Of a DNA stretch of 64,000 nt, positions 23,846 to 48,424 are shown piece after piece. Made by a program: the position numbers and the translations under genes. How positions within the stretch are numbered: position 1 is the stretch's first letter; each line of letters starts with the position of its first letter. The stretch comes from Eledone cirrhosa (Eukaryota). The notes below the pieces were generated by a model, which saw nothing but the letters and a program-made list of their open reading frames with translations, was not told the DNA's origin and did not search any database. The stretch spans positions 20,460,001 to 20,524,000 of the forward strand of contig OZ024761.1 of NCBI GenBank assembly GCA_964016885.1, read 5' to 3'.

Positions 23846-24484
23846 ACTTCCTCTACTTTCATCTTGTCTCTGTTTTGTCAGTCAGTCACAAGACTCAGGT
23901 TCGGACGAGGCATGGAACCTCGCGGATTATTCTAAAGTTGTATATATATATATATATACACTAATATATATATACTGATATATATATTACACTGGTATAT
24001 ATACACTACTAAAACCCACACAAAAAAGAGAGCAATTATTATTAATATTCACGTTGTTTTCAGGTAAGTAATATATATATATATTGTTTTGTTTACGATT
24101 TTTTCTTTCCATTTTTATTAATAAATCATATTCCGTCATATATATGTATATATATATATATATATATATATATATATATATATACACATATGTATATATA
24201 TATATATGTGTATGTGTGTGTTTATATATATTTAAACACACACATATGTGTGTGTTTGTAGCTTCCATCATCGTCCCTTCGTTTGATTTTTATATAATTA
24301 TTATTATATGTTGAATTAAAACAAGAATAACAAATTAGCAATATATATATATATATATATATACCCGCAGACCATATATTTATATGTGTGTGTATATATA
24401 AGTTTATCCCGGGTTCAATCGGATGTAACCACAATAAGTAAGGTACTCAATACAAGGCAGAGTATAAATATTTATATAGAAATG

Positions 24485-24533
24485 GCTTCTACAGGACTAG
24501 AACTGTTTCATTCCGGAGAAATCATCAGGAAGC
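24485..24533 (-). ncRNA. Type I hammerhead ribozyme (family B)
   Basis: Minus strand: gcttc-CTGATGA-tttc tccg gaat-GAAAcag ttctagtc ctGTA^-gaagc. Confidence 0.75.
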
Positions 24534-27500
24534 TGATGATTTCTCACGAATGAAACAGTTTTAGTCCTGTAGAAGCCATTTCTATTTATATATATATATA
24601 TATATATACATACATACATACATACACGCACCTGCAGCTTACATCGAACAACAAATACTTGAACTAATTTTACAATGGTTAAGAAATGTATACTTTGTTT
24701 CAGGTAAATAATACACACATATATATAGGTAAATATATATATATATACACACAGAAAGAAGATAGTATGTATGTATATATATATATATATATGTGTATAT
24801 ATATATATATATATATATATATATATATATGTGTATATATATATATATATATATATATATATATATATATATATATATATATGTGTGTGTGTGTGTGTGT
24901 GTGTGTGTGTGTGTATGGGTGTATAATTATATATAGTTTCGGTCAAAATTGGTGTCGCTCGTTTCAGCTGAGTACCGTAAATGAATTGATGGAATTCCTC
25001 CAGGAAGAAGAAGAGTATAATAATATATATATTATGTGTGTATATATATATTATGTAAAGGGTGGGCTAGTGAATATATTACGTAAACAAGGGGTATATA
25101 TATATATATATATAAGATCCCGTTAAGGATGAAAGCAGCGATTCTTTGCTTAAACTTTTATCTGTTATTTTAATAAATATATATAATGTATGTATATGGA
25201 TTAGAAATGATACTACATTTGTATTGAAACGGAGAGGTAGACGGATTTTATGGGAAGATAAAGATGTATACACACACATGTATAGATCCATCTCTCTCTC
25301 TCTCTCTCTATATATATATATATATATATATACCGTTTTTTAATTTATTTAGAGAATTGTTTGATAACCGCTTGCTCCGCTCTTTTTTAATATATATATA
25401 TACACACACATGGGTTTGGCAATACCATGTATATAAATATATATACATTACAGCTGTTTAGATATCAAGGGATCATTCTTTCGTTATACGAAATCACAGT
25501 AAAGTGAAACATACATATATATATATATATATATATATATATATATATATATAATGTATATACACTGTTCCCTCTCCTAATAAACAGTCGGGACCTATAT
25601 CCAACTAGTTTCATAGTACCCTTAGTATGTACTCTAAATACTATTTATGTTCATTCAGTTTAGTATCTCATCCCGACATATGACAATATCTTTCACTTCA
25701 TCAGCTTCTTATATATATATATATATATATATGTGTGTGTGTGTATAAGTTAATTTAGTAATTAATCAACCCGAAATATGGAAAATAACGATCGTATATT
25801 AATTAAAATGATATATAATTAAATGTTTTGGTCCTTTATATTATTATATATATATATATAATGTATATATAATATAATATATATATAGCTATATATATAA
25901 TATATATAATGTATATAATGAAACGAATCAATCGGATAGTTCAGACATATATATTAGAGGTGTATATATATATATATATATATTAGAGATATATATATAT
26001 ATATATATTAGAGATATATATATATATATATATTAGAGGTATATATATATATATATATTAGAGATATATATATATATATATATATTAGAGGTATATATAT
26101 ATATATATATTAGAGGTATATATATATATATATATTAGAGGTATATATATATATATATATTAGAGGTATATATATATATATATATATATTAGAGGTATAT
26201 ATATATATATATATATATTAGAGGTATATATATATATATATATATATTAGAGGTATATATATATATATATATTAGAGGTATATATATATATATATATTAG
26301 AGGTATATATATATATATATATTAGAGGTATATATATATATATATATTAGAGGTATATATATATATATATATATTAGAGCTATATATATTAGAGCTATAT
26401 ATATATATATATATATATATATATATATATATATATAATCAAGATGGAATCAGTTTGAAACTGGTTAGACCATTACTCAACAGAGTACTCGATATTTGAG
26501 GTAGTAGAGTATGGTTATATCCGTATTAAGAGTCAAGACCCTACGGCTGAGCTGTTGCCGTTTCAACAGCTGGTTCCGGACTCTTAGAGGTGTATATAAA
26601 AACATAACCATAATACGTTTATATACAATAAACGTATGGGTAGCCTATATATATATATATATATATATATAGGCTACCCATACTATATATATATATATAT
26701 ATATATATATATATATATATATATATAGGCTACCCATACTATATATATATATATATATATATATATATATATGCTACCCATACTATATATATATATATAT
26801 ATATATATATATATATATATATATATAACGAAGGAATTGTGGTAAGGAACCAGATGGACCATAACGCACCAAAGTACTCAATACTTAGGGTAGTAGGAAC
26901 AAGTATGACCCCGACGGCAGAGCTCTGCCGTCGGGGTCATATTTGTTCCTATATATATATATATATATATATATATATATAGGCTCCCGAGTTGTGTCGA
27001 GCTGTAATCAGTTTAAATCAGGTGTTCGATTTATTGGTAAAGTATAGGCATCTTTATTATATATATAGAAATGACCTCTACAAGACTAGAACTGTTTCGT
27101 TCCTATGAAATCATTACTAATGTCATAATACCTAGGCTCATATATATATATATATATATATATATAATGTATATATATATATGTATATATATATAATGTA
27201 TATATATATATGTATATATATATATATATATAATGTATATATATATATGTATATATATATATATGTATATATATATATATATGTATATATATATATATAT
27301 AATGTATATATATATATATATAATGTATATATATATATATATAATGTATATATATATATATATATATATAATGTATATATATATATATATATATATAATG
27401 TATATATATATATATATATATATATATAATGTATATATATATATATATATATATGTATATATATATATACTTATGTGTGTGTGCATATAACAATTTCCAT

Positions 27501-27729
27501 CGTTTAGTACAAGGGCGTAACAAAAATCTTTTTAAAAATAACAGAATGTACTACGAATGTACTATGCAATTATTGAATTAAATATAATTAGAGATTAGAT
27601 ATAGAAAAATATTATATATATTAAATATATATTGAAAAATATATTTTTAAATGTCTCATCTCTCGAAATATGGAATAAATATAGAGACAGGAGAAAGACA
27701 GACGAACATAATGAACAGGTGACCGTGTT

Positions 27730-28350
27730 GGTTTCTAATTAAGGCACAAGGCCTGCAATTTAAAGGGAGGTGGGTGGAAAGTCGATTAAATCAACCCAGT
27801 GCATTACTGGTATTTTATTTTATCGACACCCCGTAATGATGATAGGCAAAGCTCACCCCGATAATAATGTTTCTGATTTAGGCACAAGGCCAGCAATTTT
27901 TGTGGGAGGGGAGAGAGGAAAGTCGGTTAAATCGACCCCAGTGCATTACTGGTTCTTTATTTCATCGACCCCAGTGCATTACTGGTTCTTTATTTCATCG
28001 ACCCCAGTGCATTACTGGTTCTTTATTTCATCGACTCCAGTACATTACTGGTTCTTTATTTCATCGACTCCAGTACATTACTGGTTCTTTATTTCATCGA
28101 CTCCAGTACATTACTGGTTATTTATTTCATCGACTCCAGTACATTACTGGTTATTTATTTCATCGACCCCCGTAAGGATGATAGGCAAAGTCAACCTTGG
28201 TGGGATTTGAACTCGGAATATAAATAATTTCTTTATTTACCACCGAACTATATCTGTTGAGTTGGTATTTTAGACTCGTCTCTTTATGATCTGAGTTCAA
28301 ATCCCGCCGACGTTAGCTTTATCTTTCATCCTTACGGGGTCGATAAATAA
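27730..28350. mobile_element. SINE family 1 cluster; the middle copy carries a 33-bp tandem array
   Basis: tcgac(c/t)ccagt(g/a)cattactggttctttatttca x7 inside a minus-strand SINE. Confidence 0.8.
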
Positions 28351-47100: not shown

Positions 47101-47580
47101 GCATAACGTGGTTTATGAACGTGTGTATGTATCTATATGTATGAATGTATGCGTGTGCATATGTACGAATGTGTCTGTATATATTTATGAACGCGCGCGT
47201 GTGTATGTATATGTGTGTTTGTATATGTATAAATGTGTGTGTATTATTATCACAAATCTAAAATACGATTTTAAAAATGTTGACCTCAATATAACAGCTT
47301 TCTGGTCTGTTAACCTCATCTTTGGAGATGAAACATTTATTTTTATTATTATTTTTGTTATTTAATATTTACATAATAAACATGTAGTGTAATCGGAGTG
47401 GGGTGGTGTGTAGTGTGGGGTGAGGATCTGTAATCTTATGAAAAACAACTCAACTCAGACAATCAGACGTTTAAAGTTGACCTTGTTTCGTTTCAGATCA
47501 CGAAAGTAAGGGAGATAAATGTGTAATAGATAGTTTGAAACGTAACATTGACCCAATCAACACAGCCTTGTGTAATAGTC

Positions 47581-47806
47581 TACCATAAGTACTTGAGTAT
47601 AAGTGGCTTTGAATATAAGGTGAACCCCCAATATTTTATGTCAGAGAAATGGGCAAAAAATCCAAACTTTATTTTTGTAAAATTTGAAGTTTGTGAAAAA
47701 TCATCAAAATATTGATTCCAAATATTAGTTAACCCTATTTCTACGATTGATTGATTTTTTTTCTTTTGATTACATATTCCTCGGCTTATATTTGAGTATA
47801 AACAGT
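47581..47806. mobile_element. Probable Tc2/pogo-like MITE
   Basis: Imperfect ends taccataagtacttgagtataag / cggcttatatttgagtataaacagt; related fragment at ~49440-49500. Confidence 0.45.
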
Positions 47807-48066
47807 GTGTGTGTGTATATAGGAGTCGATCGACTTTCGTCTAATCAGACCGAGGGATCAATGTTTCCCTTGGTCTTACCAATTTCTAATACTATCTATT
47901 GGTCGCAACTCCAGGTAGAAGGAACATGAAATAAAGTGTCTTGCTCAAGGACACAACACATCGCCTGGTCCAGAAATCAAACTCATAACCTCACAATTGC
48001 GAATCCAGTTCTCTAACCACTCAGCCACATGCTATATATATATATAAGAAATTTAATATAGAAATG

Positions 48067-48117
48067 GCTTCTACAAGACTAGAATTGTTTCATTCAAAGG
48101 AAATCATCAGGAAAGCC
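48067..48117 (-). ncRNA. Type I hammerhead ribozyme (family B)
   Basis: Minus strand: ggctttc-CTGATGA-tttc cttt gaat-GAAAcaa ttctagtc ttGTA^-gaagcc. Confidence 0.7.
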
Positions 48118-48424
48118 ATTTTTATATTAAATTTGTTGTTTGCAATCTACTAATGTATTGAGTACCTTACTGTGGTTACCCTCCATTGAACCTGGGACTC
48201 ACACACACACACATATATATATATAGTATATGTTGGGTTGTATTGGAGTTTACCAATATATGTCCTGGTAAAGATTATAGAAGCTCTATGATACTCAGTA
48301 TCCATGGTCCAGCAGTAACCGACAAAGGCTGAGGGAGATTTTAGCTGCAGTAGATTCTGCTATAGACTGTTATGGCCCGGACTACAGAGCTCAAGATTAA
48401 ATAAATTGAAAATATATATATATA

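Follow-up and report, generated by a model that had tools for sequence, protein, structure and literature searches.

Does a stretch of the Eledone cirrhosa genome that holds several hammerhead motifs carry independent ribozymes, each kept by selection, or are these motifs the remains of something larger? The stretch, hereafter the window, comprises 64,000 nucleotides (nt) of contig OZ024761.1 (assembly GCA_964016885.1, positions 20,460,001 to 20,524,000 of the forward strand) and is AT-rich and dense in microsatellites. Our analysis indicates, with a probability that we put at roughly 85%, that its seven hammerhead motifs are fragments of the pseudo-long terminal repeat (pLTR) of a Penelope-like element (PLE), a retroelement of the Hydra clade, which likely arose when the reverse transcriptase (RT) copied no more than the initial 50-140 nt of the element RNA into (TA)n targets.

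The window was scanned with the 23-nt 3' half of the hammerhead, allowing up to five substitutions, and 20 dinucleotide shuffles served as control. Exactly seven copies were recovered, as against two matches in all 20 shuffles together, which bears out the seven copies that a reading of the sequence alone had described. In register, the 49-nt copies lie at 7276-7324(+), 24485-24533(-), 24528-24576(+), 27074-27122(-), 30271-30319(-), 30365-30413(-) and 48067-48115(-). As that reading had stated, the stem II tetraloop differs in all seven while TTC/GAA is constant, and three folds are complete: the full core and stem I are present in 24485, 30365 and 48067, the last with a stem I that needs a bulge or a G-U pair. 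The motif has the CUGANGA, GAAA and UH core, the three helices and the open helix I of a type I hammerhead. The model search that had been proposed as a check gave nothing, as neither the 30365 copy nor the copy in the parent element described below matched an Rfam hammerhead model at E<=10; in a search of the whole window, the Rfam matches listed (150 of 228) included no hammerhead and only microsatellite-driven miRNA matches. The arms of the repeat found in the window are listed here, where the wall denotes the position at which most arms end on their 5' side.

7276..7324 (+): decayed old hammerhead arm, with the core mutated and stem I mostly gone
24400..24484 (-): tail-bearing arm, consisting of the 3' part of the pLTR and a tail of about 70 nt, with (TA)n at its end
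24485..24533 (-): complete hammerhead of subfamily B, its 5' end at the -5 wall
24533..24586 (+): tail-less inverted partner arm, head-to-head with 24485..24533; it begins at core C3 and so lacks the 5' strand of stem I
26982..27122 (-): arm of an old subfamily, with decayed core and diverged tail, flanked by (TA)n runs
30262..30312 (-): tail-less arm, 5'-truncated (without C3-U4-G5 and the 5' strand of stem I), with microsatellites on both sides
30349..30413 (-): complete hammerhead of subfamily A on a tail-less arm that ends at the -5 wall, with a private change to C at 10.1
30414..30497 (+): inverted tail-only arm after a short junction filler, with (TA)n at its end
48047..48117 (-): hammerhead of an older subfamily (C) on a tail-less arm; its A-U at 15.4/16.4 arose from two changes that coincided by chance
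48118..48200 (+): inverted tail arm, joined via stem I microhomology, with (CA)n/(TA)n at its end

Three of these groups (24400-24586, 30349-30497 and 48047-48200) form head-to-head insertions of the PLE type. Genome-wide (3.0 Gb), exact-pattern counts, which are lower bounds, gave at least 31,828 hammerhead 3' halves with G at 15.4 and at least 1,260 with another base there, at least 19,153 copies in which CUGAUGA, stem II and GAAA are all intact, and at least 13,193 matches to the tail pattern. Flanks inspected by eye indicate a dispersed repeat seated in (TA)n runs. In a sample of 100 arms (the first 100 matches to the exact 3' half, from 72 loci of one contig, including eight copies of one duplicated insertion), 42 sit in 21 head-to-head pairs, and in 20 of these pairs the tail is on exactly one arm. 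A one-sided tail and an inverted, 5'-truncated partner are the insertion structure described for PLEs (PMC8557442). The duplicated insertion, which is truncated, recurs eight times with identical flanks in 20 Mb of contig C1 (L173, L175, L176, L177, L182, L189, L199 and L240) and rides inside another repeat.

The open reading frame (ORF) of the parent was reached by walking beyond the tail, using tails without TA after them; a walk upstream of the repeat ended in a microsatellite. A pattern for the start of the ORF had 40 matches, and 30 of these loci were fetched. One of them, L157, contains a stop-free ORF of 714 amino acids (aa), preceded by a TATA box at 2229 and a hammerhead at 2260-2308 and starting with an ATG at 2440. 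The order in the parent is TATA box, 30 nt, hammerhead, tail and ATG, and the hammerhead-bearing sequence lies directly upstream of an ORF with RT and GIY-YIG motifs. The protein contains RWR, DKT, YRDD, CxCX5C (CNCLNKEAC), VY..YIG, CxxC-E (CDLC..E) and N..CxH (N..CMH). Its AlphaFold model has a predicted local distance difference test score (pLDDT) of 90.5, and the four best Foldseek matches are telomerase reverse transcriptases (E 6e-9), while a single-protein sequence search of the PDB returned noise only. Among 52 homologues with 33-53% identity, the sole named one is from Octopus bimaculoides. Judged by these motifs and the predicted structure, the parent is an endonuclease-containing (EN+) PLE with a telomerase-like RT and, C-terminally, a GIY-YIG domain in a single ORF.

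PMC8557442 describes the Hydra clade by RWK, DKT, a CxCX5C linker, CxxC and CxH around E/N, the lack of CCHH, and a preference for (TA)n. By its protein motifs and (TA)n targets, we assign the parent element to this clade. Its RWR is one conservative change away from RWK, and between VY and YIG there is no CxxC, only two widely spaced Cys. Neptune, considered at first, was discarded, as DKT and CxCX5C indicate Hydra instead. In 11 of 25 ORF-linked loci, a second hammerhead on the same strand follows downstream, forming the direct repeat of the pLTR. The unique part of the element measures about 2.9 kb, and 4.3-5.5 kb separate the two hammerheads with the microsatellite included; with the latter counted, the length is above the Hydra-clade norm (<3 kb), which is a descriptive feature and not a diagnostic one. 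The spacer between the ORF and the second pLTR is pure microsatellite in two of the five checked loci (L312 and L314, 2-2.7 kb of alternating purine and pyrimidine), and contains other DNA too in L311, L307 and L310. On the element strand, this TA/TG/CA microsatellite occupies 2900-5550 in L312 and 2300-4350 in L314. Since the element carries it between ORF and pLTR, the full element may spread microsatellite and, with it, its own target type.

The small size and the very high number of the short copies could also mean that they are a self-standing non-autonomous element, a mini-PLE or retrozyme, multiplying from its own RNA, perhaps in circular form, and animal retrozymes have indeed been proposed to derive from PLEs (bioRxiv 10.64898/2026.07.22.740005). 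We consider this improbable, given that junctions vary between the short copies, that most of them are missing the TATA box, that the 100 arms are all single or head-to-head, with none of the head-to-tail tandem arrays that characterize retrozymes, and that subfamily A variants of the short copies recur on ORF-linked copies.

We compared 21 copies of subfamily A, picked via the ORF, and 28 of subfamily B, picked via upstream DNA; the evidence on stem I comes from these and from 31 sampled arms. At stem I pair -4/+42, subfamily A has A-U (loop TAAA) and subfamily B has C-G (loop TCCC), and the 31 arms show A-U 27 times, C-G four times and no mixed pair. About 19 forms of loop II occur among 68 of the 100 arms (one per insertion and loop type, with an intact 5' half), and the positions of the stem II 5' strand are intact in 68, 67 and 64 of them. 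Between subfamilies, core, stem II and loop III are constant while loop II varies, and every catalytic core base is kept. The free loop II, the intact stem II and the unmixed pair swap indicate that the replicating masters kept the hammerhead fold; selection on the fold has acted somewhere. Genuine covariation exists only between subfamily masters, as one stem I pair swap.

Within subfamilies, none of 588 pair cells is compensated, 32 are broken and 17 are of the wobble type. Among the first 100 of the 1,260 variants at 15.4, counted by hand, 50 have A, and 47 of these keep C at 16.4, two have G and one has the compensating T; over all 100, two are compensated and 92 keep the old partner. The stem III version CAA/TTG in the window is thus a chance product of two independent mutations, and the compensation once seen in it falls away. 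The seven window copies and one parent copy together have three double-change cells, one of which stems from a decayed copy, and as many are found in 71 of 500 shuffles. The stem I versions, CAA/TTG and CAG/TTG do occur in the window as the sequence-only reading had stated; what did not hold is that their covariation exceeds chance. Its conclusion of selection on RNA structure applies to the masters, which kept the type I fold, and not to the seven copies, which decay uncompensated. Nor are these seven independent selected ribozymes, as it had proposed, overlooking the parent element: they are truncated retrotransposon ends of several subfamilies. The pyrimidine mismatch at 10.1/11.1 is present (position 10.1 carries U in 97 of 100 copies and position 11.1 in 99 of 100, in place of a G10.1-C11.1 pair), and it is not the unusual trait it was taken for, having been published for Hydra hammerheads (PMC8557442).

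These counts also bear on the possibility that the dispersed copies are themselves active and selected, for example by cutting host introns or readthrough RNAs. One might expect as much from the at least 19,153 copies whose core and stem II are unbroken, from a subfamily B core that varies less than the stems, and from the 24485 copy, whose monomer fold is the most favourable computed (p ~0.02). Against 0 compensated and 32 broken cells, old partners kept in 92 of 100 variants at 15.4, window covariation inside the shuffle range and a subfamily A core as variable as the tail, we regard it as very unlikely; moreover, head-to-head copies would be expected to form a long hairpin.

The 5' ends of the 100 arms are bimodal: relative to C3, 63 lie at -7 to +3 (the wall; eight of them belong to the duplicated insertion), 22 lie more than 17 nt upstream, three at -8 to -17 and 12 further inside. 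The wall is 30-31 nt below the TATA box, the distance expected for a polymerase II start. Where (TA)4 is joined directly to subfamily A, 57 joins fall at the wall, 10 at the ribozyme cut site and five at a control TAG 8 nt upstream of the cut site, the last two not being clearly different (p 0.30). Of 30 arms picked by their tails, a sample overlapping the 100 arms, 21 cross the cut site by script and three more by eye, and a single one ends on it, at stem I microhomology. No pile-up of ends at the cut site was seen in the 100 arms, the tail-picked arms or the (TA)4 joins. The position of this wall, 30 nt below the TATA box, suggests that the hammerhead opens the transcript and that the ribozyme is its first ~45 nt. 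In the literature searched, with most subscription journals, Repbase and Dfam outside its scope, we found neither this hammerhead family nor a transcription start at any PLE hammerhead described.

Under the retroelement reading, transcription would start about 1 nt ahead of stem I. Reverse transcription would begin at two internal sites of the leader, one just past the hammerhead and the other at the end of the tail, each using one nicked target strand, and both complementary DNAs (cDNAs) would run off the 5' end of uncut RNA before being joined. A full transcript with two sense hammerheads would be cut as a dimer, yielding RNA of unit length.

Folding predictions are consistent with this last step. 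The active monomer fold of the parent copy has p ~0.001, that of 24485 being the best of those computed, whereas for two copies the predicted lowest-energy fold is a double hammerhead (-18.0 kcal/mol) in which stem III is swapped via CUAG. On balance we slightly favour the view that the monomer folds poorly and that the active form is the double hammerhead joined through the loop III CUAG, so that only full pLTR-ORF-pLTR transcripts, because they have two sense copies aboard, could cut and release unit-length RNA. Lone and head-to-head genomic copies are predicted to be mostly inert, and the motif likely matters only within full-length element RNA, in which two copies are predicted to act together in cutting.

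A hammerhead of the same origin might, alternatively, not cut at all and be kept for its shape and sequence as a structural signal, in RT binding or as a promoter or start-site element. The cut site lies within at least 31,828 copies, and ends there are without clear excess (10 vs 5, p 0.30); stem II has just 3 bp, with U-U; insertion by another PLE proceeds in vitro without need of cleavage (PMC11167929), and minimal PLE hammerheads cut weakly (PMC4209133). Nevertheless, the catalytic core bases are the same in every subfamily, with loop II free to vary, and an axolotl hammerhead with U-U at the base of stem II does cleave, better as a dimer (PMC7229834), and we hold a non-cutting role to be the less likely one, though a serious candidate. 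Equally tentative is our proposal that the first ~45 nt of the capped mRNA act as a dimer-gated switch: the 5' and 3' pLTR copies would pair via loop III and be cut jointly, which would detach the cap and the RT-start tail and divert the RNA from retrotransposition to cap-free translation or circles, while uncut RNA would be copied. If so, more than 30,000 genomic ends would amount to a natural primer-extension map of the transcript start and the uncut state of a PLE.

Several points weigh against the interpretation of the seven motifs as PLE ends copied from a transcript that is cut as a dimer. Pfam gave no significant RT or GIY-YIG match with the parent protein alone and, with 37 aligned family proteins, weak matches to RT in one and to GIY-YIG in three; a profile match to a retron RT was weak (E 0.015). 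No second sense hammerhead was present in 14 of the 25 ORF-linked loci within the 7-10 kb fetched. The reference panel for 5' ends is without upstream sequence of the older subfamily, the 100-arm sample is confined as described above, with its eight duplicates, and the three join patterns are unequal in length (25, 29 and 37 nt). The energy of the loop III dimer is equalled or beaten by 12.5% of its 840 permutations, and with the downstream leader included the hammerhead is no longer the preferred fold. Finally, the core of subfamily B varies less than the stems (G/C sites 4/112 vs 30/336), not the outcome that purely neutral decay would lead one to expect; a possible explanation lies in CpG sites and mixed sub-subfamilies.

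The closest known systems are the Hydra-clade PLEs (Craig et al. 2021, PMC8557442), of which Hydra-1_Obim, Penelope-n_HM and Penelope-1_NV resemble the family in protein motifs, (TA)n target, inverted 5'-truncated partner and one-sided tail. File S2 of that paper includes Hydra hammerheads whose tetraloops vary and whose short stem II has a U on either side; the HM families share these traits with ours, and the NV, SK and Amil families have an identical stem III (ACAG/CUGU). In contrast, the hammerhead of Hydra-1_Obim differs in sequence and its protein, compared by eye, is clearly diverged; loop III here is 8 nt long and contains a CUAG palindrome, against 1-3 nt for the Hydra motifs given there; stem II has 3 bp, mostly A-U; 2-3 kb of microsatellite follow the ORF; and the tail has ~70 nt as opposed to the 30-40 described for PLEs. 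In antisense, the end of this tail resembles a splice donor (GGTAAGT) in many copies, e.g., at window 30489-30497 (-). A different repeat (window 7110, 7751 and 26873, all +) has a short GTACTCAATAC word in common with the tail, perhaps as an RT-start signal used by both.

Minimal PLE hammerheads (Cervera and de la Pena 2014, PMC4209133) are likewise of type I, in pLTRs, with solo copies left in their thousands by truncated PLEs, neighbours on the opposite strand, covarying consensus families, a palindromic loop III and proposed dimer activity, although dimer cleavage was weak. Unlike them, the present family lacks the G10.1-C11.1 pair and has a short, not long, stem II and a full 4-bp stem III. 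Poseidon PAc of Anolis (Frangieh et al. 2024, PMC11167929) also has its hammerhead where pLTR and ORF meet, and its tail is delimited by two internal RT starts, as we infer here; its main template is uncut RNA, and cleavage is protein-assisted. In PAc the ATG lies within the hammerhead and the RT starts within the ORF, whereas here the hammerhead and both putative starts would lie in a leader of more than 131 nt. Animal non-LTR retrozymes such as axolotl HHR_Amex2 (PMC7229834) are also type I and have U-U where stem II begins. The axolotl ribozymes show weak cleavage in monomeric form and do better in dimeric form, as predicted here. These retrozymes form head-to-tail tandem repeats that give circular RNAs, whereas the copies found here are ends of a coding element, dispersed singly or head-to-head.

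The hammerhead family itself is new; as PLE pLTR hammerheads are already known, the U-U variant included, the motif as such is no surprise. With an intact ORF, copies of low divergence, several subfamilies and more than 30,000 cDNA ends, this family makes three questions directly testable: where transcription starts, whether the template is cut and whether a dimer is needed.

Further features were noted near the insertions and in the window. Other GIY-YIG retroelement ORF fragments lie near hammerhead insertions in L085, L122, L121 and L156, which indicates that (TA)n-rich regions host several PLE families together. The window also has CUGANGA...GAAA cores whose sequences differ from that of the present family, at 4025(+), 3882(-), 7600(+), 30618(-), 40551(-), 30911(+), 13318(+) and 13618(-), with 3882(-) and 4025(+) forming a head-to-head pair; they probably mark the ends of further PLE families. 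At 10942-12318 (+), a stop-to-stop frame of 458 aa, which follows a 21-nt tandem repeat and encodes an extended series of C2H2 zinc fingers, has the look of a host gene. A frame of 351 aa at 42045-43100 (+) resembles the reverse transcriptase of a non-LTR retrotransposon and may be RTE-like.

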